DNA from: a virus
IMG/VR virus record: IMGVR_UViG_3300037755_000365
Span: 1 to 57,692 of that record
Strand: one strand, 5' to 3'
DNA: 57,692 nucleotides
Notes under the pieces: generated by a model
Told to the model about the DNA's origin: nothing
Seen by the model: the letters and a program-made list of their open reading frames with translations, nothing else
Databases searched by the model: none
Made by a program: the position numbers and the translations under genes
In this document: in pieces, positions 6,853 through 49,077 of the stretch
Layout: every line of letters begins with the position of its first letter
Numbering within the stretch: the first letter of the stretch is position 1

Positions 6853-6853
6853 C

Positions 6854-7120: not shown

Positions 7121-7121
7121 G

Positions 7122-7388: not shown

Positions 7389-7404
7389 TTCGTTCGGGCA
7401 CGGG

Positions 7405-7947: not shown

Positions 7948-7963
7948 TGAGAATCTGCCTCAC

Positions 7964-13293: not shown

Positions 13294-14139
13294 CTAAAGC
13301 CACGCGCGCCCGATGTGGCGCGCGAGATCGAGCGGGATTTTCGCGATCATCGCAGAGGCGGCTTTGCGCTTGCTCGACTTTGAGCCTGCGTTCTTGATTC
13401 CGTCTCGCGGATCATTCCGTCCGTCAGGATTGCGCCCCTTGCCGCTCGTCGTGTTGTGCGCGACGTTGAACCAGGAGCCGCCGGTATTCTTTCGGCCAAC
13501 GGCGCCATTGAAAGCTACCGGCTTATAGCCTTCTTTCCCGTAGTCGCTCCAAGAGAAGCCACCGCGCTTTACGCCTTCTACGCTTTGCAACTTGCGCACC
13601 ATTGGCATCAGCGCCGGCACGTCGCCCCACAAGTGGAACGAGCCGAAGTTCCACCGTGACCGACCGACCCACGGAATGGCGCCGCGCACGTTCTCGACCA
13701 CGAGCGGTATGTGATGCCCCGCCGCCTCGATCGCCTCTCGCTGAATCCGAAAACAGGCATCGAATAGAGCACTGAGCTCGTTGACCGTCCTCGATCCCGT
13801 GTAGCCGTCTGGAAACTCGCCCTCACCACGCAGCGCCGCAGCGATCTGCTTTGCCCGCGTCCACGGCATTGCCATGTAGCTGTACTCTGTGCAGGGCGGT
13901 GAGGCGACAATCAGCGACGCATCCTTGAACTGCCGGCCGTGCAGCGTGAGCACGTCTTGGATCACGAGCTTCCCCGGATAGCGGTGCTCGCCGTAGACGT
14001 GCCGCTCGTTGTCGAAGCCGATCACGTCGTAACCCTCGGCTAATAGACCATCCGTCCATCCCCCGAGCCCGCAAAAAAGATCAATTGCCAATGTCAATTC
14101 GTCCTCTGCTGTTCTTGGCGGCGGTTGCCTATCGCACAC
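13294..14139 (-). CDS. DNA (cytosine-5) methyltransferase, orphan
   Basis: Motif I DLFCGLGG, motif IV ASPPCTEYS, motif VI VVENVRG; no adjacent restriction endonuclease recognisable. Confidence 0.85.
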   Translation of the reverse strand: MCDRQPPPRTAEDELTLAIDLFCGLGGWTDGLLAEGYDVIGFDNERHVYGEHRYPGKLVIQDVLTLHGRQFKDASLIVASPPCTEYSYMAMPWTRAKQIAAALRGEGEFPDGYTGSRTVNELSALFDACFRIQREAIEAAGHHIPLVVENVRGAIPWVGRSRWNFGSFHLWGDVPALMPMVRKLQSVEGVKRGGFSWSDYGKEGYKPVAFNGAVGRKNTGGSWFNVAHNTTSGKGRNPDGRNDPRDGIKNAGSKSSKRKAASAMIAKIPLDLARHIGRAWL

Positions 14140-29075: not shown

Positions 29076-29216
29076 TCAAAACCACGCGTGAGGCGTGCCG
29101 GTATCCGAGTCGATCTCTTCCTGCTCTGGCGGCAGGATGTCCGGTGTCATCCAGATGACGAAGGCGATGATGGCAATCGGTGCGCCGAGGATAGTGAGTA
29201 GCGTGAGTGCAGTCAT
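29076..29216 (-). CDS. 46-aa TM protein on the opposite strand between the two giant genes
   Basis: AAGGAG 6 nt upstream of ATG; MTALTLLTILGAPIAIIAFVIWMTPDILPPEQEEIDSDTGTPHAWF; its ATG and the ATG at 29215 share the palindrome TCATGA. Confidence 0.4.
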   Translation of the reverse strand: MTALTLLTILGAPIAIIAFVIWMTPDILPPEQEEIDSDTGTPHAWF

Positions 29217-31290
29217 GAGGTTCTCCTTGTCGTTTCGCCGGATTCTAGCACTCCTGGTGGTAGGAATTGTGACCTGCTTCACATCTTCCGCCCATGCCGA
29301 GATGACTGTTGGGGCGTCCGACATTCAGTTCGCCGCCACTCACGACGGCTCGTTTGCGCTCTCGGCGATGCCGACCCATGCAGCGGGCGACCTCATCGTG
29401 ACAATCCCGGTCGGGTCAAACGACAAATTCAGTGGCGGCGCTGACGGCGAGACGATTGGGACTGCCATTTCCGGCCACACCGCGCTGCGGGCCAATTTCC
29501 AATCGACCGACACGAATGTTGATCTCGTGGCCGGTGCTCACTGCCGGGTCGCGCTCTCCAGTTCCGAGTCCCCGCCAGAAATTACGACTACATACGCCGA
29601 CAACAATGCGGACGTCGTTGGCATGGGCGTGTTCATCGTGCAGACCGATGGATCGTTCGACTGCGGCAATCTGCCGATTGATATGTCGGCGGGTCTCGCA
29701 GAGGATGAGTTCGGGCACATCGACCACGAGGCGCTAGACGTGACGGGCGACAACCGTCTCGTGATTGCCGTGGGCGTCACCGCCACGACGTACACCGCCG
29801 CTGCGGCACCGACGTTTGCTGACATGATGTGGGCCGAGCTCGACACGCCCGCTGGGATTGATCTGGCTCTGCTGGTTGCCTACGACTTGCAGACAACGGA
29901 AACGGATATTTCGGCGGCCATCGACACGAATGCTTTCGAGCTGACGAGCGAGGCCAACGCGGCTAAGCCCGAGTTGAGCTTCATCTTCAGCATCGGCGAC
30001 GAGGCGGAAACAGCTCCGACAATCACCAGCGCTCTCACCTGCGGCACTCGTGACGCCGATGGAATGAATTGCGCCGTCACGGTAGACGAGGACTCGACGG
30101 GCCACATGGTGGCTTGTCGGGTGAATTCTGCAACACCGACCGATGCGCAGCTCAAAGTAGGCGACTGCACAGGGGATGAGGATGCGCTCGAATACGAGAC
30201 CGCATCTCTCACGGCTACGGTCTCATGGAGTGCGCATTTCACAGGCTTGGCATCTCGTCCGGCCTACGATATCTACTTCATCGCCACGAATGCCGGTGGG
30301 GATTCGGCTCAAGACGCGAACGTAGACGAGGAACGCGGCTGTGCAACGGTGTTCGGCGGTGACTGCGACATCTTCCCGCTCACGTCTTTGGCAATGGCCG
30401 GCTGGGCCGCACTGTCGAACATGGCGGTATTCGGCGATGCAGCCGATGAAACCTTCTGGGGCACGACGACCGAGATAGCAGCCGGTGATTGGGTCGAGAT
30501 CGCGACAGTAGGTAGCATCATCGGCTGCGAGTTCACGCACACGACCACGGGCGATTTCACCGTTGCAGGGGTAGGCGGTGTCGGTGATTGTCCCTCGGCC
30601 AAGGAGAGCGTTCGATTCGGGATTATGAGCGCGACCACGGGCAACCTGTTTGCTTCTGCTGGTGCTACTTATCCCGGCTCATACGAGGGCCAGTACGACT
30701 TTCTCTACTTGAACAATGGTCCGCCGACCTGCCCGGAAGGCTCTGATCATCCGTTCCAAACAGGCGAAGCGTACAGCCGGGATTTCAGCCTAGAGATCAG
30801 CGATCCTGACGGAGACGCGATTGATCTCGCCGTGTTCACCGGAGCGGTCATCAACGGCCTTGCCCATAGTGGTACTGGTAATTTGCTCTACTCCGGCACC
30901 GTCGACGACATGGACGAGGACGAGACCGGGAGTGAGATTACCAGACGATTCGACGATGGGACGGGCGATCACTGTTTCGTTGCCGATGTCGAGTGGCCGA
31001 TCGACACGATTACCGTGCCTGACCTCGTTGGAAGTGACACGGATGAGGCCATTACACTTGAGCTAGCTGCTTTCCCGTTTCGGTCAGAGCCCACACTCGA
31101 CACGAGCGAGACGGACTACAGCGACACAGTGCCCGCGGGCGACATCATCAGCCAAGACCCTGCTGCCAGTACCGAGGTCGCGTTCGATCAGGAGCTGAGC
31201 GGGGTGGTTAGCTTGGGTGAGGAACCGCCACCTTTGGAGGGCGGCAGGGGCGGCAGAAGACCGTTTGGTTTGGGACTAGGGGTGAACTGA
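29215..31290 (+). CDS. 691-aa secreted acidic protein with cadherin/He_PIG-like and C-terminal PASTA-like segments
   Basis: Signal peptide MRFSLSFRRILALLVVGIVTCFTSSAHA; 12 Cys in mature part; ISDPDGDAIDLAVFTGAVINGLAHSGTGNLLYSGTV; VPDLVGSDTDEAI..YSDTVPAGDIISQDPAASTEV..VVSLG. Confidence 0.7.
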   Translation: MRFSLSFRRILALLVVGIVTCFTSSAHAEMTVGASDIQFAATHDGSFALSAMPTHAAGDLIVTIPVGSNDKFSGGADGETIGTAISGHTALRANFQSTDTNVDLVAGAHCRVALSSSESPPEITTTYADNNADVVGMGVFIVQTDGSFDCGNLPIDMSAGLAEDEFGHIDHEALDVTGDNRLVIAVGVTATTYTAAAAPTFADMMWAELDTPAGIDLALLVAYDLQTTETDISAAIDTNAFELTSEANAAKPELSFIFSIGDEAETAPTITSALTCGTRDADGMNCAVTVDEDSTGHMVACRVNSATPTDAQLKVGDCTGDEDALEYETASLTATVSWSAHFTGLASRPAYDIYFIATNAGGDSAQDANVDEERGCATVFGGDCDIFPLTSLAMAGWAALSNMAVFGDAADETFWGTTTEIAAGDWVEIATVGSIIGCEFTHTTTGDFTVAGVGGVGDCPSAKESVRFGIMSATTGNLFASAGATYPGSYEGQYDFLYLNNGPPTCPEGSDHPFQTGEAYSRDFSLEISDPDGDAIDLAVFTGAVINGLAHSGTGNLLYSGTVDDMDEDETGSEITRRFDDGTGDHCFVADVEWPIDTITVPDLVGSDTDEAITLELAAFPFRSEPTLDTSETDYSDTVPAGDIISQDPAASTEVAFDQELSGVVSLGEEPPPLEGGRGGRRPFGLGLGVN

Positions 31291-34763: not shown

Positions 34764-35650
34764 GCGGATACGTTGTCATTTCTCGCCACGGAAGCCGCAA
34801 GAACGGCGAGGCGACGTGGCTATGTCGTTGCGGTTGCGGCACCGAGCGAATTATCCGGACTAGCCGGATGAGTCCTGGGAAGCGGTGCATTCGATGCACA
34901 CGCGAAGCCGCGGCGCGCTCGTCAATAGACTTAACCGGTAGGGTGTTCGGGTCGAAGACTGTCACAGCTAAAGCCGGAGAGGATCTTTGGCTTGCTGGGT
35001 GCACGTGTGGTTCGGAAGCGGTATATAGGACGTCCACTGTCCGTGCCGTAGGAACCGACCACTGCATGGACTGTAGGCCGATGGCTCGGCCGCGAAATGG
35101 TGGATACACGAAAGGCAAGGCGGGCGTTGACAGGACCGGGCAACGGTACGGGCACTTGATCGTGCTCAGGCAGGACGAGACTTTCAGAGATTGCGTCCGC
35201 TGGCTGTGCCGGTGTGACTGCGGGAATGTTGTTTCGAAGAGCACGAACGCCTTCTTGAAGAAGGGGCTGAGATTTTGCGGCGCGGCGTGTCCTTTCTGGG
35301 TGCGACCATCTGGCAAAGACCACCACCGCTATAGGCACGGGATGTCCGGTACGCGCGAGTATCAGTCTCGTTATCGCGGGAAGCGTGGCGGCAGAAGAGC
35401 CGGATCGCTACCTCGTGGCTACCTGACTGTCTTATGGGGCCGGCAAGGTGGTCGATGCGCCTGTTGTCGGACCAAGATCCCTCGCGCGTCTGAAAGAACC
35501 GGCCAAGTACACTTGGACCATATTGTTCCGATTGCTGCTGGTGGTGAGCACGAGCAGTACAACGTGCAGTTGCTTTGCTCGACATGCAATGTGAGGAAAT
35601 CGTTTAAAGATCCGCTCAAGTGGCGTCAGCAGCATGGATACCTGCTATGA
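34760..35650 (+). CDS. HNH endonuclease with three N-terminal zinc-ribbon repeats
   Basis: WLCRCGCG..CIRC, LAGCTCGS..CMDC, WLCRCDCGN..FCGAAC; C-terminal HLDHIVPIAAGGEHEQYNVQLLCSTCNVRK. Confidence 0.75.
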   Translation: MSGYVVISRHGSRKNGEATWLCRCGCGTERIIRTSRMSPGKRCIRCTREAAARSSIDLTGRVFGSKTVTAKAGEDLWLAGCTCGSEAVYRTSTVRAVGTDHCMDCRPMARPRNGGYTKGKAGVDRTGQRYGHLIVLRQDETFRDCVRWLCRCDCGNVVSKSTNAFLKKGLRFCGAACPFWVRPSGKDHHRYRHGMSGTREYQSRYRGKRGGRRAGSLPRGYLTVLWGRQGGRCACCRTKIPRASERTGQVHLDHIVPIAAGGEHEQYNVQLLCSTCNVRKSFKDPLKWRQQHGYLL

Positions 35651-35982
35651 GCCGCTGGCTGCTCGCCCTTCTGCTGATTTCCAGTTCTGTTTTCGCCCAG
35701 GACTTCGGATCGGCCGGCGAGGGATTTTCGCGCGGTTTCGAGGCTGGGTCGAACGCGCGTCGAAATAGAGCCCTGGCTGCTGAATCTCGTCAGCGGAGTG
35801 AATTGTTGGAGCTGGAACGGCGGCGGCAGTGCGAGGAGCTTGCGGAGGAGAGCTGGCGCCGGAAGCTCGAGGCTTTCCAAGCCATACGTGGCTTGCTCGA
35901 AGGGGCAAGATTGGAAGCTGAGAGCGACAAGCTGATCGAGGCGTATTTGGCGTATCGGGTCGAGCTCGAAGGGTGTGCGTGA
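35647..35982 (+). CDS. secreted coiled-coil protein carrying the GFSRGF motif
   Basis: Signal peptide MSRWLLALLLISSSVFA; mature N-terminus QDFGSAGEGFSRGFEAGS mirrors N-terminus of 53300..54670; 2 Cys. Confidence 0.55.
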   Translation: MSRWLLALLLISSSVFAQDFGSAGEGFSRGFEAGSNARRNRALAAESRQRSELLELERRRQCEELAEESWRRKLEAFQAIRGLLEGARLEAESDKLIEAYLAYRVELEGCA

Positions 35983-36182
35983 TGAAGGAATGGGGAGACG
36001 CCTTTAAGCGGGTTTTGGCTGATGCCGGATTGAGCGAGGAAGTTTTGGCCGGAAGGTTGGGCGTGAAGTTGTCCACAGTTCACAAGTGGACAATTACCGG
36101 AGCCCCTAACTACGTTTATGCGCATCTTGAGGATGTTCTGACTGGACGAACACCTACTGTGGCAAAAACGTCGAGGACGTGA
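35982..36182 (+). CDS. small HTH protein
   Basis: LSEEVLAGRLGVKLSTVHKWT. Confidence 0.5.
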   Translation: MKEWGDAFKRVLADAGLSEEVLAGRLGVKLSTVHKWTITGAPNYVYAHLEDVLTGRTPTVAKTSRT

Positions 36183-36442
36183 TGAAAGCATGGCTTCTCT
36201 TGCTCATGCTGCCGTTTTCGGTCCTTGCCGACGAGCCGAAAGATCCGATCCGGGTGCAATGCGAGCAGGGCCTGCACGATTCGCTGCAGGAGATGCTCGA
36301 ATCTGTTGCTGGGGCTGAGAAGGTGCTGGGCAAGTACGAGATCGAAGGGAGCTTGTTGGAGAGCGTGCTTGCGACGTACCGGGCGAACGTGGAGCTGTGT
36401 GTTGCCGGGGTTGAGTATTTCAAGGGGCTGGCGCAGGAATGA
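36182..36442 (+). CDS. secreted helical protein
   Basis: Signal peptide MKAWLLLLMLPFSVLA; 2 Cys. Confidence 0.55.
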   Translation: MKAWLLLLMLPFSVLADEPKDPIRVQCEQGLHDSLQEMLESVAGAEKVLGKYEIEGSLLESVLATYRANVELCVAGVEYFKGLAQE

Positions 36443-36675
36443 ATGAAGGTTCCCTTGGCGCACACCGCTGGATTCCATTTTCTGAGCAGTGGCCGGAAGA
36501 GGCTGGATTGTATCTTGTCGCCAATCGCATCAGGTGGACTGGAATTTGGATAAATCCGAAGTCTGCTGAATATCCAGATGGGCTGATCGTTGATCATAAC
36601 GAAGTGTTCTTCAACGAGGCGCCAACACATTGGGCAGAGGGGCCGGCTTTACCTGCCAGCAATGAGAGGGAATGA
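36439..36675 (+). CDS. DUF551-like phage protein
   Basis: HRWIPFSEQWPEEAGLYLV pattern. Confidence 0.5.
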   Translation: MNEGSLGAHRWIPFSEQWPEEAGLYLVANRIRWTGIWINPKSAEYPDGLIVDHNEVFFNEAPTHWAEGPALPASNERE

Positions 36676-36971
36676 GCATGCACACCTACCGTGGCAAGAA
36701 CATAGAGGAATTGCGGCGTGCGGAGTTGCGGCACGTAGCCGCTGAACTGGGTGTAAGCGCTGACGGATCAAAGATCGAGATTCTGGGCAGGATCGCAGCG
36801 GTTGCTGCTGTTGATGGTGTCGTCGAGCTCAGCAAGCCGGCACCAAAAGTCGTGAGGGAGCCCGTCAAGGTCGTGAAGGCACCGAAACTCGTGGTAAGGG
36901 CACCCGTCAAACGGGTCGTGGTGAAGAAAGCGGCGAAGAGGGTACCGGTGAGGGCGGCCAAAAAGCGCTAG
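36672..36971 (+). CDS. SAP/HeH domain protein with histone-H1-like K/V/A/P repeat tail
   Basis: NIEELRRAELRHVAAELGVSADGSKIEILGRI then PAPKVVREPVKVVKAPKLVVRAPVKRVVVKKAAKRVPVRAAKKR. Confidence 0.6.
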   Translation: MSMHTYRGKNIEELRRAELRHVAAELGVSADGSKIEILGRIAAVAAVDGVVELSKPAPKVVREPVKVVKAPKLVVRAPVKRVVVKKAAKRVPVRAAKKR

Positions 36972-37083
36972 AGCTGCTCACAGTCATGAGGCGGTCACTC
37001 TGCTAAAAGGTTTCGAGTTCCTCGGGATTGCCCAGAGGGACTATCCGCAAGACCTCGTAGACAAATTCCAAGGCAAGAAGCTG

Positions 37084-37602
37084 TTGGTTGTCGCGGGCGC
37101 GAAATGCGTCTGGAACGACCTCGCTTTGCTTGGGGTTAGGGGCGGCGAGAACGCCGGCTGGGACGTGATGTGCGTCAACGACATCGTGATGCACTACCCC
37201 GGCAAGGTGAAGCACCTGTATTCGAACGACCACCGGCTGATTCCGCACTGGCTAGGAGCTAGACGGAAGCAGTACGAGCGCGCGTATGGTCCAGTCCAGC
37301 ACGTTCACTCATGCAGGGTCGGCGGTCGGCATAACTGGCCATGGCCTGGGCACGGAACATCTGCTTTAGGCGCCGTGTACACGGGTCTTGCGATGGGCTA
37401 CACGATCGTGATTTGCGGCTGTCCGCTGGACGACAGTCCGAACTACTTTTCGCCCGATTGGGAGCTGCGGAACTTCACGAAAGAAGTTGGCGTGAAGTCT
37501 GACGGCACGATGCAATATTGGGAGGCGGCGAAGCAGAAATGTTTCAGGAATCGCGTGAAAGCGATGAGCGGTCGAACCCGCGCGTTGCTCGGGGCGCCAT
37601 AG
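37084..37602 (+). CDS. Rossmann-like DUF115/MAF (MptE-like) putative transferase (tentative)
   Basis: (FQGKK)LLVVAGAKCVWNDL..WDVMCVND..GTSALGAVYTGLAMGYTIVICGCPLD. Frame is open back to 36952 with no ATG/GTG/TTG; CTG at 37000 preceded by GAGG may be the real start. Confidence 0.55.
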   Translation: MVVAGAKCVWNDLALLGVRGGENAGWDVMCVNDIVMHYPGKVKHLYSNDHRLIPHWLGARRKQYERAYGPVQHVHSCRVGGRHNWPWPGHGTSALGAVYTGLAMGYTIVICGCPLDDSPNYFSPDWELRNFTKEVGVKSDGTMQYWEAAKQKCFRNRVKAMSGRTRALLGAP

Positions 37603-37772
37603 GCTGTCCGTCAGGCAAGCAGGGATACCCGACGACGAAGGCAGCCAGAACGGCGTTGAACCGCTGCATGCGGCGCAAAGGACGACGTAGGCACGAGAGT
37701 TCGTTCTATAGGTGCGAGTGCGGAGACTACCATCTCACGAGCGAGCTTCCGTCCGATACGCGATTCAGGTGA
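37539..37772 (+). CDS. small zinc-binding protein
   Basis: YRCECGDYHLTS motif; overlaps upstream gene by 64 nt. Confidence 0.4.
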   Translation: MFQESRESDERSNPRVARGAIGCPSGKQGYPTTKAARTALNRCMRRKGRRRHESSFYRCECGDYHLTSELPSDTRFR

Positions 37773-38368
37773 AGGTCACGGCCGTGATCCCGGTGGGTCC
37801 GGGTCACAAGCAGTATGCGGAGGATGCGGCAGGGTCCGTCTATCGCGCATGGGCGAATTCTAAAGGGCCGTTCGAAGAACTTAACGTCGTCATTATTGAC
37901 GACACGTTGGGGAAGAGAGGTCGTTCAGCTTCGAGGAATCACGGCATCAGCCGTAATCCTTCGGACTGGTACTTTTTGCTCGACGCAGACGACGAGATGC
38001 TCAGCGACGCTTTTCAAAACGTCGCCATTGAGTCTGCGGCGACGTTTGGTGCGGTGTGTCTCGACGGCGTGATTGCCAAAGAGAACATCTACCCATTGAC
38101 TCGAGAGATGCTGTTCGCTCACGGAGCGAAGGGCACCTTGAGCATGGGCTGCTTCGTGCGAGGTGATGTAGCAAGAGCAACGCCGTTCGATGAGACGTTG
38201 GAAACAGGAGAAGATTTCGATTTCTACATGAGGTTGCCGGATTTCGTGAAGATAGATCGACCGCTGGTGTCGATTGGCTACCGGAAGCCGAGTGCCGGAG
38301 GCCCTAAGGGCTACAAAGACATCAAGTGGAGAGAGATTTGCTGGAGCGTCATTGACCGCTATCGCTGA
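37769..38368 (+). CDS. GT2-family glycosyltransferase
   Basis: GTGA coupling; VTAVIPVGPG..VVIIDDTLGKRGRSASRN..LLDADDEM. Confidence 0.75.
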   Translation: MKVTAVIPVGPGHKQYAEDAAGSVYRAWANSKGPFEELNVVIIDDTLGKRGRSASRNHGISRNPSDWYFLLDADDEMLSDAFQNVAIESAATFGAVCLDGVIAKENIYPLTREMLFAHGAKGTLSMGCFVRGDVARATPFDETLETGEDFDFYMRLPDFVKIDRPLVSIGYRKPSAGGPKGYKDIKWREICWSVIDRYR

Positions 38369-38828
38369 GCACACGCTGCCGGCTCCACGATCTCTGATTC
38401 ATTGCCAAACAGTTCTCGATATCGGTGCCGGTATCCGGCCGATGCGGTGGTACGTGCCAGAAAGGCACATTTGCGCCGATCCACACGAGCCGTATGTAGA
38501 AGTCTTGAGGCAGTTTGGATACGAGGCGCATCACAAGAACGCGATCGAAGCATTGAGCCTTATTGAGGCCGAGGCGATCTATTTTCTCGACGTGATCGAG
38601 CACATGGACAGGGATCTTGGAACGCGGGTCATCGAGCTCGCGTTGTCAAAACCGCACAAGCAGATCGTGATTTACACACCGATCGGATTCGTCGAGCAGC
38701 GTGAAGATTGCTGGGGGCTCGGCGGGGAGTATTGGCAGACGCATCGGTCTGGATGGATGCCCGCGGATTTCCCAGGCTGGACGATAGAGACATTCAAGCG
38801 GGAAGGATTTTTCGCCATACATGAGTAA
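38352..38828 (+). CDS. class I SAM-dependent methyltransferase
   Basis: Motif I VLDIGAGIRP; YFLDVIEHM; TTG start at 38352 assumed (track ORF opens at 38274). Confidence 0.65.
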   Translation: MTAIAEHTLPAPRSLIHCQTVLDIGAGIRPMRWYVPERHICADPHEPYVEVLRQFGYEAHHKNAIEALSLIEAEAIYFLDVIEHMDRDLGTRVIELALSKPHKQIVIYTPIGFVEQREDCWGLGGEYWQTHRSGWMPADFPGWTIETFKREGFFAIHE

Positions 38829-39867
38829 GTACAGCCAGCTCAAGCCCGCGTTCCATTTGGACCGGATTGTGCAGCTTCGCCAAGGTAAGAATCCGGTTCC
38901 CGTTCACGTGCAACTGATTTTGAGCGACCTGTGCCAGCAGTCGTGCAGTTGGTGCGCATACCGCATGGACACTGGACTTTCTACTGAATTGTTTTGGACG
39001 GAGACGACGCACAACCCGAATCGAAAGATCGAGACATCGAAGGCGCGCGAGATTCTTGACGATTGCGCTTCGATGGGGGTCAAAGCGATTCAATTCACTG
39101 GAGGTGGAGAGCCTACTGTTCATCCAGAACATCGTGAATTATTCGCATACGCTCAGGACTTAGGGCTTGATACGAGCCTGGTCACGAACGGCGTTCGGTT
39201 GGATGTCGAGAGTGACAGCACCCTTCGGATGAAGTGGATTCGCGTCAGCATCGATGCGGGACGCGAGGAAACCTATTGCAAGATTCGCAACGTCAACGCG
39301 ACGCATTGGCGGAAGGCGTGGGCAAACGTCGAGCGATTGGCGAAGCGCTTCGAGGGTGCGCTCGGGGTCGGGTTTGTCGTAGCGCCGGAGAGCTTCAAAG
39401 AGATTGGCGAATGCGCTTCAAGGTGCAAATATGCCGGCGTTTCTAACATGCGAGTCGGGGCCGTGTTTTCAGAGCAAGGAATCGGCTTCTACGGAGGCTT
39501 GATTCCCGAGATCGTCGAGGCGATCAACGAGGCTAAGGCAAAATACGACGGCGACGGGTTCGAGATCATCGACCTGTTCGGGAGACGGCTCGGAGATTTG
39601 GAAAACGGTAGCCCGACCGATCCATTCTGCGGCTACCAGCACATGACGATGTACATCGGTGGAGATTTGAACGTCTACCGATGTTGCAACACGTCTTACA
39701 CGAAGGCTGGTTTGCTCGGGAGCCTCAAGGAGACGAGCCTCAAAGAGCTGTTCGGAACGCTCGACTACTCGTTCGATGCAAGGCAGTGTCGCTACTGCCA
39801 GTTTCTCGGACAAAACGAAGCGATTTCCGCGCTGATTAAAGAGCCAGAGCACGTAAATTTCGTATGA
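38821..39867 (+). CDS. radical SAM enzyme with C-terminal auxiliary Cys cluster
   Basis: C38-x3-C42-x2-C45 (CQQSCSWCAY), FTGGGEPTV, C-terminal FCGYQ..YRCCNTS..CRYCQF. Confidence 0.85.
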   Translation: MSKYSQLKPAFHLDRIVQLRQGKNPVPVHVQLILSDLCQQSCSWCAYRMDTGLSTELFWTETTHNPNRKIETSKAREILDDCASMGVKAIQFTGGGEPTVHPEHRELFAYAQDLGLDTSLVTNGVRLDVESDSTLRMKWIRVSIDAGREETYCKIRNVNATHWRKAWANVERLAKRFEGALGVGFVVAPESFKEIGECASRCKYAGVSNMRVGAVFSEQGIGFYGGLIPEIVEAINEAKAKYDGDGFEIIDLFGRRLGDLENGSPTDPFCGYQHMTMYIGGDLNVYRCCNTSYTKAGLLGSLKETSLKELFGTLDYSFDARQCRYCQFLGQNEAISALIKEPEHVNFV

Positions 39868-40391
39868 CCACGGCGCAATTCGCATCGATGTCCGACGTGG
39901 ATGCGGACAACTTCATGCCTATTTCCGAGGTTCAGCCGGTCAGAACCTTGCTCGCGAGAATGGTCGGGCATGGAACGGTGGTCGATATCGGTTGCGGCAA
40001 GGGCGACGAAGTGTCTGACCTATTCGACCCTGAAAAGTATCTCGGAATCGATTGCTCGGAGGCGTTGATACGAATAGCAAGGCACCGAAACCCTGGATTC
40101 AGATTCGAAACGATCCAGGGCCTGGATCTGAACGGTCACTGGGACTACGGGATCATCAAGGCTGTCCTGGAGCACGTGCCGCCTGACGAGGCAGTCGCGA
40201 TTTACGAGAACGCGAGGCGCGTATGCGACGTGCTGCTGGTTGCCTGGCACACGGAACCTGGGAGAGAAAATCTCGCCTGGTACGACGGGGAGATAGGGAG
40301 GATGCAGCAGAACCGTCACGACCGATCAAAGTTTTCAGGGATAGAGCATCGTGAAGTGTGCGGGAAGCATGTGGTCTGGACGGTTATTTGA
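39864..40391 (+). CDS. class I SAM-dependent methyltransferase
   Basis: VVDIGCGKGDEV..LGIDCSEALI..IKAVLEHVPPDEA; ATGA coupling. Confidence 0.75.
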   Translation: MTTAQFASMSDVDADNFMPISEVQPVRTLLARMVGHGTVVDIGCGKGDEVSDLFDPEKYLGIDCSEALIRIARHRNPGFRFETIQGLDLNGHWDYGIIKAVLEHVPPDEAVAIYENARRVCDVLLVAWHTEPGRENLAWYDGEIGRMQQNRHDRSKFSGIEHREVCGKHVVWTVI

Positions 40392-40959
40392 GGATTTCTT
40401 CCCTGTCTCGGATTCGATTGCACTCGTCACTACGGGTAAGAAGCTAGACGCGCTTGATCGAATAGAGACGGTCGGCTACTCCGTTCGCGGCAGTAAGGTC
40501 GAGATCGGGGAACGTCTTGCTGTTCTAACGCATGGGACCGGTTTGAGGCTTGGTGGTTTGTTTAACGGTCGGCTCGTGTACTCGGAGATAGGGAAAGGAA
40601 TTGTTGGCGAACCCAACAACGCGCCGGCTAGTGCGCATCAACCGTTCGTAAAGGACGGCTCTGTTTATTACACGGACGGTTGGCCGCAAGTTCGCATCTA
40701 CAGAAACGGCGAAGTGTTCTTGGATCACTTCAACGACATGGAGCAAGTCGGTAATCCGTGTTGGGTTGGCGATTCGATGTATTTCGAGGCGCGTGCCGAC
40801 GACGACCCGAGAAGACCCGATCTTTGGGAGATTTGGCGCTATGACGGGAATCTCGATTTCGTGTGCATGGGAGCAAACCCGTCCTATTGGAACGGTAGGC
40901 TTTTTGTAGGCGAATGGAATGGGCGAAATTTCGACTACCGATGCGCAACGATTGATTGA
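40369..40959 (+). CDS. beta-propeller-like hypothetical protein
   Basis: Repetitive beta-rich sequence (YFEARADDDPRRPDLWEIWRYDG); start ATG 40369 or GTG 40351. Confidence 0.5.
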   Translation: MWSGRLFEDFFPVSDSIALVTTGKKLDALDRIETVGYSVRGSKVEIGERLAVLTHGTGLRLGGLFNGRLVYSEIGKGIVGEPNNAPASAHQPFVKDGSVYYTDGWPQVRIYRNGEVFLDHFNDMEQVGNPCWVGDSMYFEARADDDPRRPDLWEIWRYDGNLDFVCMGANPSYWNGRLFVGEWNGRNFDYRCATID

Positions 40960-41509
40960 TGCGAAGGCTTACCCGCCGACGCATACTTACGATCTAGCGA
41001 CGCTCATTCCCAGATACCCGTTGAATCATCGGCTCTCGATTCTGTTGCGGGTTTGCCCGGATATGTTCAAGGCAAATCGGTTTCTGGACGTCGGGTGCTC
41101 GAAAGGGTTCTTTGCGCTCAAGGCGGCGAAAGAAAGCAGTTCTGTTCTTGCCATAGATCCAGACGAGGAAGCGCTCAAGTCTTGGGAAAGCGTTTGTCCA
41201 AAGAACGTGACGCAGAAAGTTGGCACGTTCAAAGACGTGTCTGGCGAGTTCGACATGGTGTGGATCGGCAACGGCCACCACTACCTATACAGAGAAGACC
41301 GGAATTACGTCGATCGCCTCAAGCGAATCGCAACCGATAGGGTGCTGATCGAGGGGCCGACTGGGCCGAAGCGCTTTGAGATGCGGAATTTCGGGCCGCA
41401 CCAAACCGAGGTGGAATTGTTGGAATCGATGCAGGACTTCTATCTTGTGAGGCGGGCAGAGTCAGAAACGAAAGGCAGGGCTGTTTGGCTGTTCAAGACG
41501 CGCTCGTGA
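40919..41509 (+). CDS. class I SAM-dependent methyltransferase
   Basis: FLDVGCSKGFFAL..VLAIDPDEEAL..FDMVWIGNGHHY. Confidence 0.7.
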   Translation: MGEISTTDAQRLIDAKAYPPTHTYDLATLIPRYPLNHRLSILLRVCPDMFKANRFLDVGCSKGFFALKAAKESSSVLAIDPDEEALKSWESVCPKNVTQKVGTFKDVSGEFDMVWIGNGHHYLYREDRNYVDRLKRIATDRVLIEGPTGPKRFEMRNFGPHQTEVELLESMQDFYLVRRAESETKGRAVWLFKTRS

Positions 41510-41988
41510 CGTTGCCGCACAACCGTTACGGAGAATATTTGGAGCACGTGTATACGAAGATGGCCGTTCATGTTCCACCAGACTCGACGGTGCTCGAGAT
41601 CGGGGCTCGTCATGATCGTGGCGTGATCTCCAAGCGCGTGATCCCGCACAAGACGTTTTTGACCGTGGACAGGAATTCTCGGAGAGGTGACATGACGGCC
41701 GACGTGCTGTACGAGGAAATGCAAGCCGGCGTGATTCTATCGACGTGCATTTTGCACCATACGCCGGAGAGCTTGATTCCTAAACTGCTGGATAACCTCG
41801 TGGCTCCGCTGCTGATGTTCTCTGGGCCGAACGTTGAGGCCATGCCGAAGTTGTTTGGTGACCATCGGTGGCACATCGAGATACCGAAATTCGTGGGATG
41901 GCTGGAAGAGCGAGGCTACACAGTCACGTGGGAGCGCGTAGGGCTGTCTGAGCCGCTTTGCGAAGTGCTGGTGCTAGCCAAGAGATGA
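41506..41988 (+). CDS. methyltransferase-fold protein (divergent)
   Basis: GTGA coupling; VLEIGARHD..FLTVDRN..ILSTCILHHTPE. Confidence 0.5.
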   Translation: MTLPHNRYGEYLEHVYTKMAVHVPPDSTVLEIGARHDRGVISKRVIPHKTFLTVDRNSRRGDMTADVLYEEMQAGVILSTCILHHTPESLIPKLLDNLVAPLLMFSGPNVEAMPKLFGDHRWHIEIPKFVGWLEERGYTVTWERVGLSEPLCEVLVLAKR

Positions 41989-42662
41989 TCTCGGTCGTCA
42001 TGCCGTTCTGGTGCCGTCAGGAGGCGCTGGACAGGGCATTTGCTATCTACGGCGAGCTATACAGAGATTTGCCGATCGAGTTCTCGGTCTGCGACGACGG
42101 CTCGGACCCGCAAGTCTCGATGGCTAAGGCCAGTCATCCGTTTACGGTGACGCTGTTGCCGAAAAAGGCTAGAGCATTGAATCCGTGCGTGCCGATCAAT
42201 CGCGCGGTGGAGGCTTCTACCGGCGACGTGATCGTGCTGACGAATCCAGAGATCGTTCACACGGAACGGACGCTCGAAAAGATGCTCGAGCTCCTGACTG
42301 GCGATGACGATTACGTGATGGCGTCGTGTCTCGACTCGTCCGGGCAATGGCTTGCGGGGTCAAAGGTGCGATACGACCAGAACGGGAGGCTCCCCGTTCC
42401 AGATGGGGGTCATTTCCATTTCTGCTCGATGTTCCATCGGTCGCTGTGGGAGAAGGCTGGCGGATTCGACGAGGACTATCGAAATGGCCAGGCGTGCGAC
42501 GACAACGACTGGCTGTGGAGGCTTCATAGAGCCGGAGCGGTATTCAAGCTCTGCGAGAGCGTGGTGACGCACTACCGCTCTCAACTGAAATGGAACTTGC
42601 CGCACAACAGAGAGCTTTTCATGGCGAAGTGGGGATTGAATGGGCGCCAAGCCACGGCTTAG
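41985..42662 (+). CDS. GT2-family glycosyltransferase
   Basis: ATGA coupling; MISVVMPFW..FSVCDDGSDP..GDVIVLTNPEIVH. Confidence 0.75.
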   Translation: MISVVMPFWCRQEALDRAFAIYGELYRDLPIEFSVCDDGSDPQVSMAKASHPFTVTLLPKKARALNPCVPINRAVEASTGDVIVLTNPEIVHTERTLEKMLELLTGDDDYVMASCLDSSGQWLAGSKVRYDQNGRLPVPDGGHFHFCSMFHRSLWEKAGGFDEDYRNGQACDDNDWLWRLHRAGAVFKLCESVVTHYRSQLKWNLPHNRELFMAKWGLNGRQATA

Positions 42663-42933
42663 GTGGACGGGTGAGTCTTGGCATGGACTCGCACCCGTAA
42701 AGAACCATTCGTCTTACAAATCTCCTGAAACGCTCGCTGCCGAAGTGTCTCGGATGATTATTGAGAACGGATTGACCGATGTCGTGATGATCGGTCAGGC
42801 ACCGGGACGCGACGGGGCAGCCAAGTGTTATCGCTGGATGACGAGCGGCACGCTGCTTTGGTACGTGGAGCTGCTGAGATTCAACGCGGTTCACGGACGA
42901 TTTCCCTACGAAAGCAACGGCGGCCCGATCTGA
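42640..42933 (+). CDS. hypothetical protein
   Basis: 97-aa ORF abutting next start. Confidence 0.45.
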   Translation: MGAKPRLRWTGESWHGLAPVKNHSSYKSPETLAAEVSRMIIENGLTDVVMIGQAPGRDGAAKCYRWMTSGTLLWYVELLRFNAVHGRFPYESNGGPI

Positions 42934-43530
42934 GTGCTGATCGGGACAACGTGGTGGACAGGGCCTGGAAGCATCTACGGTCCTGAGTATCCCCGTGCTC
43001 TGAGAAGTCAGTTATCTGATCTAGGCCAGGATCTGATCGTTCTTGGGAACGGCGACGGATCGGATCGGCCGCTCAAGACTGGATTCACTCGCTGGTGGTC
43101 GAAACTGGAATGGCTGGCACCGTGGAACGCGGATATTCGCCCAGCTCTAGTGGTTGATCTAGACACGTTCGTCGTCGGAGGAATCGGCCCGGTTCTTTCC
43201 CTGGACGACACGAAGCTATGGCTGATCCGTCAGTTTTGGGGAACGAAACGACTCGGTGAGTCCGGGCTGTTCATCGTGCCGAAAGACACGGGCGCGATGT
43301 GGGAAGCCGCATTGAGGTACAGCCAAGACAAATACGGAGACGGAGCCTTTCTGCGGAAGTTTCCGCATGAATTCATCGTGGACGAGGTAGACGGCATTTT
43401 GAGCTACAAAGCGCATCACTTGCAGGACGGATACCCGGATGGCACGAGGATCGTTTGCTTTCACGGGAAGCCGAAGCCGGCAAATGCTTGTGGCTGGGCG
43501 CAAGAGTTCTTTTGGCGACACGCATGCTGA
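42934..43530 (+). CDS. GT8-like nucleotide-diphospho-sugar transferase (phage type)
   Basis: GTG start; WWSKLEWLAPW..ALVVDLDTFVVG..RIVCFHGKPKP. Confidence 0.6.
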   Translation: MLIGTTWWTGPGSIYGPEYPRALRSQLSDLGQDLIVLGNGDGSDRPLKTGFTRWWSKLEWLAPWNADIRPALVVDLDTFVVGGIGPVLSLDDTKLWLIRQFWGTKRLGESGLFIVPKDTGAMWEAALRYSQDKYGDGAFLRKFPHEFIVDEVDGILSYKAHHLQDGYPDGTRIVCFHGKPKPANACGWAQEFFWRHAC

Positions 43531-44993
43531 CTGATCCTACCGATTTCTCCGACGAAGAGTTGCTTGCGGCGCTATCGAAAATCGCCGAGGAAAACAAGCT
43601 GCTCGAATGGTTCGACGAGAAATTTCCCTATCGCTGGCAGCGCGCGTTCTTCGATGCGGGGGAATGGGCGAAGCAAAGGTGCGTAATTGCCGCGAATGGC
43701 GTTGGTAAGAGCTTTTTGACTTGCGCAGAGCTGGCCATGCACGTCACGGGCCGTTACCCGCCTTGGTGGAAGGGCGCGAGATTCGACTACGGCGGATGGG
43801 AATGTTGGATCGGTAGCATCGACAACGATATGCAAAAAAGAGGCCCTCAACGCGCATTGTTGGGCCGAGAACTCGAATCTGTCGGCACTGCATTGATCCC
43901 GAAGGATTCGATCAAGAGCATCGAGCTTCGCCAGGCCGGCGTTAAGTCGGTTGTCGATACGTTGGTCATCAATCACATTTCCGGTCGTCCAGTGACCGTT
44001 AAATGGCTCACGTTTGAACAGGGCTGGAGGAAATGGCAATCCGGCGACCCGAAAATCATCTTGTGGGATGAAGAGCCTGACGAATCGATCGTGGATCAGA
44101 AGGACATCATGACCGAGACACTGACTCGGCTGGTGCGTAACAACGGCATTTGGATCGTCGGCTATACGCCGTTGCTAGGTGAGACCAATCTGACCAAGCA
44201 CTTCATGGATGCCAACAAGGACGATGGCATTTTCTACGTCGGAGCCACATGGGATGACGCTCCGCACATGGACGCCGAGCAAAGACGCATCATTGAGAGC
44301 CAGTACCCGGCCCACCAAAGGGATGCCCGCACGAAGGGCATCCCGATGCTCGGCACGGGCCGCATCTTCACCGTTGGCGATTCGGACATCCTGATCGACC
44401 CGATTCACATACCGGATCACTGGGCAAGGATCTGCGGAATAGATTTCGGCATGGCGCATCCGTGTGCTGCGGCGTGGGTGGCGTGGGATCGTGACACCGG
44501 CTATTTCTACCTGTACGACTGCTGGAAGAAAGAGAGCGCCAAGACCTACGAGCATGCGCAGGTCATCAATTCACGGGGGAAGTGGATACCCGTTGCATGG
44601 CCCCACGACGGCGAGAAGCGAGACCCGAAGAGCGGCCAACGATTCGCAGACATTTATCGTGGCGAGCACGAGGTCAACATGCTTTCGAAGTCAGCGAGGT
44701 ACAAGAACGACACCGGTGGTTCTCAGGCTCAATGGCCGATCATCGAGGAAATTCGATTGCTCATGGAGTCGGGGAAATTCAAGGTGTTTCGCACGTGTAC
44801 GGACTGGGTGACGGAATTTCACAGCTATCACACCAAGGACGGAAAGATCGTGTCCCGGCGCGATGACGTTCTCAAGGCAAGCTTCTACGCGAAGATGATG
44901 GTGCGGTATGCCGTCAGCAAGAAGGAAGGCGACCGCATCCTTAGGCTGGAGCAACGCTCTGCGCCGGCAGCATTTACCACGGCAGTTCACTGA
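43524..44993 (+). CDS. terL: terminase large subunit
   Basis: ATG at 43524; Walker A AANGVGKS; C-terminal nuclease-like region; followed by portal. Confidence 0.85.
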   Translation: MLTDPTDFSDEELLAALSKIAEENKLLEWFDEKFPYRWQRAFFDAGEWAKQRCVIAANGVGKSFLTCAELAMHVTGRYPPWWKGARFDYGGWECWIGSIDNDMQKRGPQRALLGRELESVGTALIPKDSIKSIELRQAGVKSVVDTLVINHISGRPVTVKWLTFEQGWRKWQSGDPKIILWDEEPDESIVDQKDIMTETLTRLVRNNGIWIVGYTPLLGETNLTKHFMDANKDDGIFYVGATWDDAPHMDAEQRRIIESQYPAHQRDARTKGIPMLGTGRIFTVGDSDILIDPIHIPDHWARICGIDFGMAHPCAAAWVAWDRDTGYFYLYDCWKKESAKTYEHAQVINSRGKWIPVAWPHDGEKRDPKSGQRFADIYRGEHEVNMLSKSARYKNDTGGSQAQWPIIEEIRLLMESGKFKVFRTCTDWVTEFHSYHTKDGKIVSRRDDVLKASFYAKMMVRYAVSKKEGDRILRLEQRSAPAAFTTAVH

Positions 44994-47938: not shown

Positions 47939-49024
47939 ATGGCACTTACCATTTCGGCAACCGATGTAGAGTTGCCCAAGCCGCTAAACGCGGTTTTTCA
48001 ACAGACCTTGCTTCGCAACGCTCAGATTCGCGCGCCGTATTTCGTCGGCACCGTTTCTGGAGAACTGGTCAAGCAAAAGGGTGCGAGCCTGGCTGCATGG
48101 CGGCGTATCGAGAATCTCGCCGTAGCGACTTCCGCTCTGTCCGAGCTGACCACGACAGCCAGCTACATGCAAGGCCGAAGTTCCGCGGCGCTCTCGGTGA
48201 CTCCGGTCACGGCCACGATGTCGAAGTACGGAAACTTCGTCATCCTGAACGAGGAAGTGGACCTGTTCAACTTCCCCGAGCAGTTCGACAAGATCCTGCG
48301 CATCATGGCGATCAACGCCGGGCAAAGCCTGAACCAGCTTCAACGAGATGTTGGAGAGGACAATGCTACGTTGATCTATGCGGGTTCTGCAGCGTCGGAC
48401 GGAACTGTATTGAGCGTCATCACGCTCGACTCGATCAAGCTCGCAGTCAACACGCTAGACCGGAATTCGGCCATGACTTTCACGGCCATGACGACGGGCT
48501 CGCAGAACGTCGGCACGGTGCCGATCAACATGGCCTACTGGGGCTTGACGCATCCCGACGTTGCGGTGGACATCGCTGGTCTCACCGGCTTCACTTCGGT
48601 CGAGAAGTACGCGGGTCAGACGCAAGTCGCGATGGGCGAGTTCGGCACGATCACGGTGGCCGGCAAGGCGGTGCGGTTCATCTCGTCAGAAGATGCCGGC
48701 GTCGATGCAGGCTCAGGCGAGACGGGGGCTGGGTCCGCGGACCTGAACGACACGTCTGACAACGCGGATCTCTACACCACGCTGATCTACGGCGAGGAAG
48801 CGATCGGCTCCGTGGGTCTCGGCGAGCAGTGGACTGATGGCATTTATCGTGCGGGCGAAGAGCTCGATCCGGTCGATGTCATCATCAAGCGCCCCCAGGG
48901 TACCGGCACGTCCGATCCGTACAACGAAATCTCGACGGTCGCGTGGAAGGCGTGGCACACGGGTGCGATTCTGAACGCGAACTGGGTCCGAGGCATTCGT
49001 TCGGGTGCGACCGACCTCACGTAA
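47939..49024 (+). CDS. major capsid protein (HK97-fold type)
   Basis: 361 aa, position, followed by strong terminator. Confidence 0.8.
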   Translation: MALTISATDVELPKPLNAVFQQTLLRNAQIRAPYFVGTVSGELVKQKGASLAAWRRIENLAVATSALSELTTTASYMQGRSSAALSVTPVTATMSKYGNFVILNEEVDLFNFPEQFDKILRIMAINAGQSLNQLQRDVGEDNATLIYAGSAASDGTVLSVITLDSIKLAVNTLDRNSAMTFTAMTTGSQNVGTVPINMAYWGLTHPDVAVDIAGLTGFTSVEKYAGQTQVAMGEFGTITVAGKAVRFISSEDAGVDAGSGETGAGSADLNDTSDNADLYTTLIYGEEAIGSVGLGEQWTDGIYRAGEELDPVDVIIKRPQGTGTSDPYNEISTVAWKAWHTGAILNANWVRGIRSGATDLT

Positions 49025-49048
49025 GACGCAGCCAATGCGGCAACTTTA

Positions 49049-49077
49049 GAAGCCCCGCTGGTCGGGGCTTCTTTTTT
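49049..49077 (+). terminator. rho-independent terminator after capsid gene
   Basis: GAAGCCCCG-ctggt-CGGGGCTTC followed by TTTTTT. Confidence 0.85.

Follow-up and report, generated by a model that had tools for sequence, protein, structure and literature searches.

We analysed a block of 13 open reading frames (ORFs) at 36672-43530 on the + strand of IMG/VR virus record IMGVR_UViG_3300037755_000365, a stretch of 57,692 nucleotides that is called the window below and that represents the genome (~57.7 kb) of a temperate lambdoid phage. The block runs straight into the large terminase gene, terL, and encodes two GT2 glycosyltransferases, a GT8-like transferase, a MAF-class protein, three class-I S-adenosylmethionine (SAM) methyltransferases and a radical SAM (rSAM) enzyme; together these genes very probably constitute a machinery for assembling and tailoring a glycan. 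Homologues of the rSAM enzyme recur with related transferases beside the head genes of unrelated phages, and close relatives of the window carry a glycan locus at the same site with different interior genes. With the target read from gene position alone, we consider the chances about even that this late-expressed, variable locus builds a methylated, radical-tailored glycan on virion proteins. An initial annotation of the same DNA had suggested glycosylation plus multiple methylation, possibly with radical chemistry; the enzyme inventory fits that proposal, as does the lack of convincing terminators in the stretch that extends from the block to just past the capsid gene.

The gene block upstream of terL

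The genes of the block, with the downstream landmarks that bear on them, are given here one per line; L-numbers denote the loci examined around rSAM homologues and in lineage relatives, and P-numbers denote homologous proteins.

g01, 36672..36971, + strand: small basic protein with a weak SAP-like N-terminus (SAP_new25, E = 1.4e-3, below cut-off)
g02, 37000..37602, + strand: MptE/DUF115 (MAF-class) Rossmann-like protein, left frame gene, remote family match
g03, 37539..37772, + strand: small Cys-rich protein (phrog_3424, 2.7e-8; same position in L100, 65% identity)
g04, 37769..38368, + strand: GT2 glycosyltransferase, GT-A fold with DxD motif (PF00535, 24.0 bits against a cut-off of 23.3)
g05, 38352..38828, + strand: Hen1-type class-I SAM methyltransferase, methyltransferase domain only (family profile)
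g06, 38821..39867, + strand: radical SAM enzyme with a twitch-like C-terminal Cys cluster (PF04055, 2.9e-16)
g07, 39864..40391, + strand: class-I SAM methyltransferase (Methyltransf_25, 1.3e-8; orthologues in L100 and L101)
g08, 40369..40959, + strand: conserved protein, fold not matched (26 homologues; orthologues in L100 and L101)
g09, 40919..41509, + strand: class-I SAM methyltransferase (Methyltransf_25, 3.2e-8; Methyltransf_11, 8.8e-7; orthologues in L100 and L101)
g10, 41506..41988, + strand: conserved protein with a VLEIGA motif-I-like sequence only (orthologues 68-75% identical in L100 and L101)
g11, 41985..42662, + strand: GT2 glycosyltransferase of the chondroitin-synthase / beta-4-GalT-like type (PF00535, 4.5e-8, 33.6 bits)
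g12, 42640..42933, + strand: small ORF in a variable slot between g11 and g13, no library match
g13, 42934..43530, + strand: GT8-like (glycogenin-like) glycosyltransferase, predicted to be retaining, right frame gene, overlaps terL
terL, 43524..44993, + strand: large terminase (Terminase_6N and Terminase_6C)
major capsid protein gene, 47939..49024, + strand: phrog_1357 'major head protein', 1.4e-42 (relatives 73-85% identical)
intrinsic terminator, 49048..49072, + strand: 10-bp stem with 7 G-C pairs and a T-run, directly after the capsid gene

All 13 ORFs are present on the + strand and run into terL, and every junction quoted in the initial annotation proved exact. The stop of g03 overlaps the start of g04 in a GTGA at 37769, and that of g09 the start of g10 in a GTGA at 41506; an ATGA at 39864 joins the rSAM gene (g06) to g07, another at 41985 joins g10 to g11, and the terL ATG at 43524 lies in a 7-nt overlap with the g13 stop. 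Additional overlaps were found between g05 and g06 (8 nt), g11 and g12 (23 nt) and g08 and g09 (41 nt), and g12 and g13 abut. The lone apparent gap in the block, 112 nt between g01 and g02, is a start-calling artefact, and the true gap measures 28 nt. Upstream of the first canonical start of g02 the frame remains open, and the N-terminus encoded there matches P0121 and P0122 (81-83% identical overall), while the conserved N-terminal 28 residues (36972-37084) contain no ATG, GTG or TTG codon. Translation of g02 is likely to begin at the CTG at 37000, with GAGG 8 nt upstream, the alternative being a start-codon substitution in the assembly; that of g05 probably begins at the TTG at 38352. Tight coupling on one strand is by itself not unusual and is ordinary for a phage late operon. 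Because the gene order recurs at 48-85% protein identity in independent metagenomes (L100 and L101), the ORFs are real genes.

Between 18.9 and 57.7 kb the window is encoded entirely on the + strand. A scan of 33.0-49.5 kb revealed no convincing + strand terminator other than the hairpin at 49048-49072, which is the probable end of the transcription unit containing the block, and only 2 promoter-like sites where 6.6 were expected; neither lies on the + strand inside the block. The base composition of the block does not differ from that of the rest of the genome, no tRNA genes were found, and a search for flanking repeats that might mark a mobile cassette gave chance-level matches and shared motif-I codons only. 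Moreover, none of the proteins of the block has a clear membrane-spanning segment (maximum 19-residue hydropathy at most 1.7).

Recurrence beside head genes and exchange of interior genes

Single-linkage clustering of the neighbouring ORFs fused all transferases into one cluster, and iterated profiles built from the window proteins were used instead to count the core genes across 92 rSAM loci. A g11-like GT2 enzyme is the most constant partner of the rSAM (76 of the 92 loci), a g13-like GT8 enzyme occurs in 40 and a g05-like methyltransferase in 34. The order g05-rSAM-g11-g13 is found repeatedly, with a g05-like gene directly upstream of the rSAM in about 25 loci. Among the variable companions we found Methyltransf_24 proteins, GT1 enzymes, sulfotransferases, B12-dependent rSAMs and nucleoside diphosphate (NDP)-sugar epimerases/dehydratases, all of which have predicted glycan-building or sugar-tailoring functions. 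One 97-kb phage contig (L011, 5902-15409) encodes a KdsB-like cytidine monophosphate (CMP)-sugar synthetase, a KdsD-like SIS+CBS isomerase, a KdsA-like DAHP_synth_1 protein and a B12-binding rSAM, that is, a phage-encoded ulosonic-acid pathway, with MuF-like and capsid genes alongside.

The core is placed among head genes in at least four unrelated types of structural module. In L099 the rSAM gene starts on the last base of the capsid gene (Gp13-like) and is followed by a GT2 gene, a methyltransferase gene and connector genes; in L012/L013, an HK97-type siphophage, the capsid gene and the head-tail connector flank the cassette; in L095 (MW202801), a podovirus whose rSAM is only 25% identical, it lies one gene past the capsid gene; and in L009 it is found between a MuF-like gene and the capsid gene. 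The commonest neighbours that are not part of the cassette are terL, portal, prohead protease, capsid, gp6-like connector and tail tube genes. Seed-based labelling placed a head or tail gene within 10 kb in at least 43 of 84 non-redundant rSAM loci, and a manual tally found one within the same distance in 17 of the 18 loci with an rSAM at least 50% identical to that of the window, both figures being lower bounds; the unlabelled loci mostly hold distant homologues in genomes of 100-200 kb. The gene order of the window upstream of terL, which the initial annotation had proposed to seek elsewhere, was recovered in L100 and L101, whereas other lineages have the rSAM core beside the major capsid gene.

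Within the lineage of the window, relatives whose terL is 59-78% and whose capsid protein is 73-85% identical all carry a glycan locus at the same site, with g02 on the left and g13/terL on the right, and with differing interiors:

L100: the window order from g02 to g11, then g13, without g12
L101: the window order from g04 (contig start), with two unrelated genes between g11 and g13
L030: a minimal set, g02-g05-rSAM-g11-g13
L096: g02, g04, a short-chain dehydrogenase/reductase (SDR) sugar epimerase/dehydratase, g11, two further genes, g13; no rSAM
L097/L098: g02, a pectate-lyase-fold protein, one further gene, a methyltransferase, g13

The divergence of the proteins of the block is similar to that of terL and portal; the locus has therefore been inherited with the phage and remodelled by module exchange rather than recently inserted. 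Hence, of the initial description of the block as welded onto the 5' side of terL, the overlap of 7 nt stands, but the site is ancestral in the lineage, with an exchanged interior, and not an insertion. The frame gene g13 is present in L030, L096, L097, L100 and L101, g02 homologues were found in L030, L096, L097 and L100, and g04 has orthologues in L096, L100 and L101. A small version of the locus occurs in the Citrobacter rodentium phage phiNP (L102, OR565852) at 6442-8279 (genes 031-029), where a gene annotated as alpha-2,3-sialyltransferase, a g13-family gene (phiNP_030; hhalign, 1e-53) and a gene of unknown function lie between the lysis genes and terS-terL, the same site as that of the window's locus. 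P1 PmgQ and P7 HdmD are distant relatives of g13 (PmgQ, 28% identity over 65% of the query). Unlike the window, these P1, P7 and phiNP genes come without rSAM, methyltransferases or GT2 enzymes, and they are annotated with a 'putative morphogenetic function'.

As for the remainder of the window, its temperate, lambdoid character is marked by an integrase gene (11393-12493, - strand), ERF and YqaJ recombination genes, a primase-helicase, NinB and CI/Cro-type regulators. Just upstream of the block, two ORFs at 35620-35982 and 36179-36442 have hydrophobic, signal-peptide-like N-termini (MSRWLLALLLISSSVFAQ and MMKAWLLLLMLPFSVLA, respectively); no terS candidate was identified between these ORFs (35620-36442) and terL. 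The early/middle region contains two very large ORFs, one of 885 amino acids (aa; 26418-29075) with no Pfam match and one of 731 aa (29095-31290) with a C-terminal PASTA domain; a PASTA protein is also found in the relative L096, which additionally encodes an RF-1-domain (peptidyl-tRNA hydrolase-like) protein at 9334-9726, immediately upstream of the glycan locus, with an ArdC-N/MPTase-PolyVal protein nearby. A gene for an Acyl_transf_3 membrane acyltransferase, a class that includes O-antigen acetylases, lies at 2644-3738 (- strand) and adjoins a 650-aa ORF at 705-2657 (+ strand), possibly a tail fibre or spike. Finally, the early region holds a C5 cytosine DNA methylase gene or fragment (13294-14139, - strand; PF00145, N-terminal part only), the sole DNA-modification gene detected in the window.

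The radical SAM enzyme, the methyltransferases and the glycosyltransferases

The product of g06 is, as first called, a member of the radical SAM superfamily: it scores 60.5 bits against PF04055 (cut-off 29.5) and contains the CxxxCxxC motif. Across 23 sequences C38-x3-C42-x2-C45 is invariant, and so is G-G-E-P at 95-98. Five C-terminal cysteines are invariant as well (C270, C288, C289, C323 and C326; pattern C-x17-CC-x33-C-x2-C), which suggests an auxiliary Fe-S cluster; the seven-cysteine SPASM motif is absent from g06. No named rSAM family could be assigned, as all 43 NCBIfam matches fell far below their cut-offs (viperin_w_prok, 57 of 180 bits; rSAM_BlsE, 36 of 400; PqqE, 39.5 of 381). A large protein collection contained 1,115 homologues, the best 120 of which are 53-75% identical to g06 and almost all unnamed, and an exhaustive search gave 234 clusters at 50% identity with E at most 1e-30. 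Among 50,697 deposited phage records, a tblastn search with g06 found only four matches, at 24-29% identity, and a megablast search with the block, terL and portal found none. Loci of the family are rare in representative bacterial genomes, where 10 were found, mostly on contigs of metagenome-assembled genomes (MAGs), whereas IMG/VR gave 78. Judged from these searches, the g06 family is large, unnamed and uncharacterised, and is found almost entirely in uncultured phage genomes.

Part of this family contains inteins; in P0067, for instance, Hint_2 and Intein_splicing domains were recognised. Among the 150 best cluster representatives, at least 22 reach lengths of 480-1150 aa, and their match to g06 is split after query residue 44/45 or 91/92, that is, just after CxxxCxxC or at the GGE SAM-binding motif; such long or intein-bearing relatives occur among representatives P0266-P0372 and in loci L005, L007, L036, L077 and L086.

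The best PDB sequence matches of g06 are the sugar-modifying enzymes BlsE (1.4e-7) and DesII (0.04), at 15-19% identity, and a Foldseek search with its AlphaFold2 model (mean predicted local distance difference test score, pLDDT, 85.5) ranked SkfB, BlsE and DesII as the top three at a TM-score of about 0.6 (about 0.63 for BlsE and DesII), with SuiB, PqqE and anSME also ranking high; SkfB, SuiB and PqqE are twitch/SPASM enzymes. BlsE (a cytosylglucuronate decarboxylase) and DesII (a deaminase of thymidine diphosphate (TDP)-4-amino-4,6-dideoxyglucose) both act on sugar C-H bonds of nucleoside-linked sugars. In contrast to these two enzymes, the phage family has five conserved C-terminal cysteines, and SkfB, a peptide maturase, is their equal by fold; sugar-acting and peptide-acting relatives are not separable by Foldseek on this model. 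It could therefore be argued that g06 acts on a peptide or protein, either a co-encoded product or the capsid, which would then be glycosylated in a RiPP-like (ribosomally synthesized and post-translationally modified peptide) or glycocin-like manner. The first rank of SkfB and the high ranks of SuiB, PqqE and anSME would agree with this, as would the fact that GT2 includes peptide S- and O-glycosyltransferases and the presence of small ORFs in or beside the cassette (g03 and g12 in the window, a 78-aa ORF in L012 and a 123-aa ORF in L095). However, none of the small ORFs is conserved across loci, g06 has no RiPP-recognition domain, its CxxxCxxC motif beginning already at residue 38, and the cellular relatives and phage neighbours are sugar-nucleotide or glycan enzymes. 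In a Magnetococcales MAG (L016) the rSAM gene is distantly related and has nonulosonic-acid genes on its flanks, which encode a PseB-like dehydratase and a PseC-like aminotransferase fusion, and in Desulfamplus (L019) it lies among genes for a sulfotransferase, a GT2 enzyme, a methyltransferase and a GT4-TPR protein. Since the fold alone is undecisive and the cellular relatives, although distant, sit in such sugar/glycan gene clusters, we favour a sugar over a peptide as the substrate of g06 and consider the peptide alternative improbable.

The resemblance to the antibiotic-sugar enzymes BlsE, DesII and AprD4, along with several tailoring methyltransferases, might also point to a soluble product of low molecular weight, such as a modified nucleotide sugar or a glycoside that serves as a metabolite, signal or inhibitor during infection. 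The block has three to four glycosyltransferases, yet genes for scaffold formation or export are missing from it, and the consistent placement in virion-assembly modules also speaks against this idea, which we regard as very improbable.

The single g05 sequence has no Pfam match, but its family profile matches the methyltransferase domains of bacterial and plant Hen1 at 1e-10 to 6.5e-6, with D-V-I-E-H and H-R-x-x-W-T aligning to the E-V-I-E-H and D-H-R-F-E-W-T of Hen1. In Hen1, the aligned motif residues coordinate a metal, to which the 2',3'-diol of the ribose binds. The g05 family therefore keeps the (D/E)-V-I-E-H and H-R-x-x-W-T motifs of this RNA 3'-terminal 2'-O-methyltransferase; yet Hen1 has an N-terminal RNA-binding part and, in bacteria, a Pnkp partner, whereas g05 is a bare methyltransferase domain of about 160 aa. 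No NCBIfam model matched g05, bacter_Hen1 included, the scan of window ORFs detected no Pnkp-like gene, and g05, unlike Hen1, is always linked to glycosyltransferases. On this comparison g05 is not a Hen1 orthologue, although it may work in a Hen1-like way on a diol, and it is likely to be a metal-dependent sugar O-methyltransferase.

These relationships also bear on the idea that the block modifies nucleic acid, either the DNA of the phage, ahead of packaging or in its course, or the 3' end of an RNA, by sugar transfer, ribose or base methylation and radical chemistry. The initial annotation had named a placement of the methyltransferases in nucleic-acid families, together with that of the glycosyltransferases in a known DNA-glucosylation system, as contradicting its reading, and the nearest solved relatives of g05 are indeed Hen1 RNA 2'-O-methyltransferases, which methylate the 2'-OH of a terminal ribose; the g05 domain, though, stands alone and always in the company of glycosyltransferases. 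Further points for a nucleic-acid target are the adjacency to terL in the lineage of the window, the nucleoside sugar on which BlsE, the best rSAM sequence match, works, and the existence of DNA-hypermodifying phage glycosyltransferases (Pyle et al., 2024, as cited in PMC12619734). Nevertheless, the phage is lambdoid and temperate, and among the approximately 75 window ORFs scanned we found no thymidylate-synthase-like hydroxymethylase, no TET/JBP gene and no deoxynucleotide-pool gene, in keeping with the initial report that deoxynucleoside monophosphate hydroxymethylase and TET-like genes are missing. Other lineages place the core beside capsid genes rather than replication or packaging genes, g05 has neither the RNA-binding part nor the Pnkp partner of Hen1, and the neighbours across loci are sugar-pathway enzymes. 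DNA hypermodification was accordingly set aside, given that no base-modifying gene was found and that the phage is lambdoid and temperate, and we judge a nucleic-acid target as a whole to be distinctly unlikely.

Of the four class-I methyltransferases first proposed, g05, g07 and g09 are retained, whereas g10 has motif I alone: its hhalign alignment to the g05 family covers 17 columns at a probability of 3%, and it has no family or PDB match.

The calls of two GT2 enzymes were borne out, and that of one GT8-like enzyme is supported at the level of its family profile. Both g04 and g11 score above the PF00535 gathering threshold of 23.3 and carry the expected motifs (IIDD...DADD and CDDGSD), and a profile of 28 g11 relatives matches the K4CP chondroitin synthase at 2.9e-31. 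The single g13 sequence has no Pfam match at E at most 0.1; its 24-sequence profile matches glycogenin-1 (1.2e-6), a Skp1 alpha-galactosyltransferase (1.3e-5) and 'Glycosyl transferase family 8' (7e-3), and g13 matches phrog_1962 'glycosyltransferase' at 2.9e-15. In the g13 family D-L-D is invariant and the FHG-x-P-(K/R)-P end is conserved. By these profiles g13 is a GT8-like transferase with predicted retaining chemistry, whose nearest solved relatives act on proteins.

The assignment of g02 to the DUF115/MAF-like proteins holds as a remote one. The window protein itself has no Pfam match, but PF01973 is matched by 2 of its 7 homologues (best E = 1e-5), and its AlphaFold2 model (pLDDT 95) has several MptE-like matches in a viral model library (E = 2e-5 to 1e-3, probability 1.0), the match to the solved MptE in the PDB being weak (Foldseek probability 0.87, TM 0.38, E = 0.03). 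The eight best PDB matches of the family profile are Campylobacter GT42 sialyltransferases (CstI/CstII; E = 0.01-0.03), and g02 has the central Rossmann motif shared by Maf, DUF115 MptE-like proteins and GT42 sialyltransferases (G-x-S-x-x-x-A ... L-G ... G-x-D), although Maf proteins are far longer than g02 (200 aa) and the PDB fold match is weak. A tblastn search with g02 against the 50,697 phage records gave zero matches.

The remaining ORFs are less informative. The g01 product, described initially as a SAP/H1-like DNA-binding protein at the head of the block, stays below the cut-off for that domain, and homologues of it are missing from 91 rSAM loci as well as from the close relatives L030, L096, L097, L100 and L101; it is probably not part of the conserved island. 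For g08, first read as a beta-propeller, no match was found in Pfam, PHROG, NCBIfam or the PDB; several of its 26 homologues lie on contigs of the closest rSAM relatives. The g12 slot is not conserved, being empty in L100 and filled by unrelated genes in L101 and L096.

Candidate targets of the proposed glycan

If the block makes a glycan, the acceptor might belong to the host, and in lytic growth the phage would then modify either a glycan of the envelope (lipopolysaccharide (LPS) or capsule) or a protein of the cell surface such as flagellin or pilin; such a change could mask receptors, sparing progeny from loss on debris or excluding competitors. Glycosylation of LPS, capsule and flagellin typically involves enzymes of the GT2, GT8 and MAF classes, the gene of one cellular rSAM relative has PseB/PseC-like genes of the kind used for flagellin sugars beside it, one phage has Kdo-pathway (3-deoxy-D-manno-octulosonic acid) genes beside its rSAM, and the phage of the window is temperate (integrase, CI/Cro). 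Lysogenic O-antigen conversion cassettes (GtrABC, Oac, Wzy-type) likewise place sugar-modifying genes in temperate phages, but they encode membrane proteins expressed from the prophage, whereas the island proteins are all soluble and encoded in a late operon. Library scans of the block found no Gtr, Wzx or Wzy match, and no nucleotide-sugar gene, as had been noted initially; the block encodes neither a flippase nor a polymerase, lacks Gtr-type and polyprenol-phosphate transferases, and its products have no membrane segments. It is coupled into the late packaging/head operon with no promoter-like site of its own on the + strand, for which reasons its expression in lysogens is unlikely. Furthermore, the genome already possesses a conventional conversion gene, the Acyl_transf_3 gene on the opposite strand beside the tail-fibre region, which with its neighbour forms, by its gene content, a conventional lysogenic-conversion arrangement separate from the island. 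Repeated adjacency to capsid genes in unrelated phages would not be expected of a host-surface function either. Seroconversion was set aside on the grounds of membrane topology, which is lacking, and of the late-operon position, and the earlier view that the block is neither an O-antigen conversion cassette nor a known DNA-hypermodification cluster was upheld, as it qualifies for neither class. We consider a host target on the whole rather unlikely, and gene position favours a virion glycan over a host glycan.

For a glycan on the virion, we propose the following course of events. The genes at 37000-43530 would be transcribed late in infection along with those for head and packaging proteins, and the soluble transferases g02, g04, g11 and g13 would assemble a short oligosaccharide from host nucleotide sugars; the window locus has no sugar-activation genes, which relatives sometimes add. 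As a member of the MAF/sialyltransferase class, g02 may use a CMP-activated ulosonic acid, while g04 and g11 would act as inverting GT2 enzymes and g13 as a retaining, glycogenin-like GT8 enzyme. By taking a hydrogen from a sugar carbon, g06 could bring about the oxidation, epimerisation, deoxygenation or decarboxylation of one residue; g05 would O-methylate a hydroxyl of a metal-bound vicinal diol, and g07 and g09 may add further methyl groups. The acceptor would most likely be a virion protein, probably the major capsid protein, such that particles would leave the cell with a methylated, unusual glycan. The exchange of interior genes among close relatives would then diversify this glycan, as happens at bacterial O-antigen loci.

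Several observations weigh against a virion glycan. For about half of the rSAM loci no structural gene was recognised in the vicinity, and the locus of the window adjoins terL, 4.4 kb from the capsid gene. The fold of g06 fits the peptide-modifying SkfB, SuiB, PqqE and anSME as well as it fits sugar-modifying enzymes, and the nearest solved relatives of g05 methylate RNA ribose. No Ser/Thr-rich tail like those that are glycosylated in mycobacteriophages is obvious in the capsid protein, and GT2/GT8 enzymes free of membrane segments can also use lipid-linked intermediates at the inner membrane.

Virus-encoded glycosylation of particles is established for chloroviruses and a few mycobacteriophages; to our knowledge, it is not regarded as a general feature of phages. 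In the chlorovirus PBCV-1, cytoplasmic virus-encoded GT-A enzymes and sugar O-methylation give rise to an unusual methylated glycan on the major capsid protein. That system belongs to a eukaryotic giant virus, is not known to include an rSAM, MAF-class or Hen1-type enzyme, and is unrelated in gene organisation. In mycobacteriophages, tandem glycosyltransferases and an O-methyltransferase decorate capsid and tail-tube proteins (Freeman et al., 2023, as reported in PMC11600133 and PMC12619734). The island resembles this system in combining tandem glycosyltransferases with an O-methyltransferase, but the mycobacteriophage system has no radical SAM enzyme, MAF-class protein or Hen1-type methyltransferase, operates in actinobacterial hosts and places its glycans on C-terminal tails; the two are likened by gene content and position alone, the capsid protein of the window having no obvious tail. 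The initial annotation could not match an rSAM-containing version to any described system, and we found no description of an rSAM-containing phage glycan cassette in the 50,697 phage records or in the literature searched, a weak negative since that literature lay mostly outside subscription journals. As a probable glycosylation machinery encoded by a virus, the island would extend the known range of such systems. Its defining feature is the large rSAM family, phage-borne and located with head genes; its target and chemistry would be those proposed above.

More tentatively, we put forward a joint proposal that we hold to be possible rather than probable: many uncultured tailed phages of Gram-negative or environmental bacteria may share a previously unrecognised, O-antigen-like hypervariable locus that glycosylates the capsid; its signature would be a twitch-type rSAM sugar-tailoring enzyme together with a Hen1-type sugar O-methyltransferase; and individual lineages would add sulfate, ulosonic acids, or C- or O-methyl groups to the capsid glycan.

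Whatever the target, the g06 family represents a well-defined, abundant and wholly uncharacterised phage function, and the Citrobacter phage phiNP and P1 PmgQ offer a cultured entry point to part of the system, with phiNP as a tractable model of the frame genes. Should the proposed function hold, enzymology would gain a so far undescribed sugar reaction of a radical SAM enzyme, along with a sugar methyltransferase of the Hen1 type, and the exchange of interior genes between near-identical phages would be the phage counterpart of surface-antigen diversification in bacteria. A glycan on the virion would mean that the surface chemistry of phages is more diverse than assumed, which would bear on adsorption, adherence to mucus and particles, antibody recognition in phage therapy and unexplained capsid densities. 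A diversifying glycan coat would affect how these phages adsorb, how stable they are in the environment and how they are recognised by hosts and predators.

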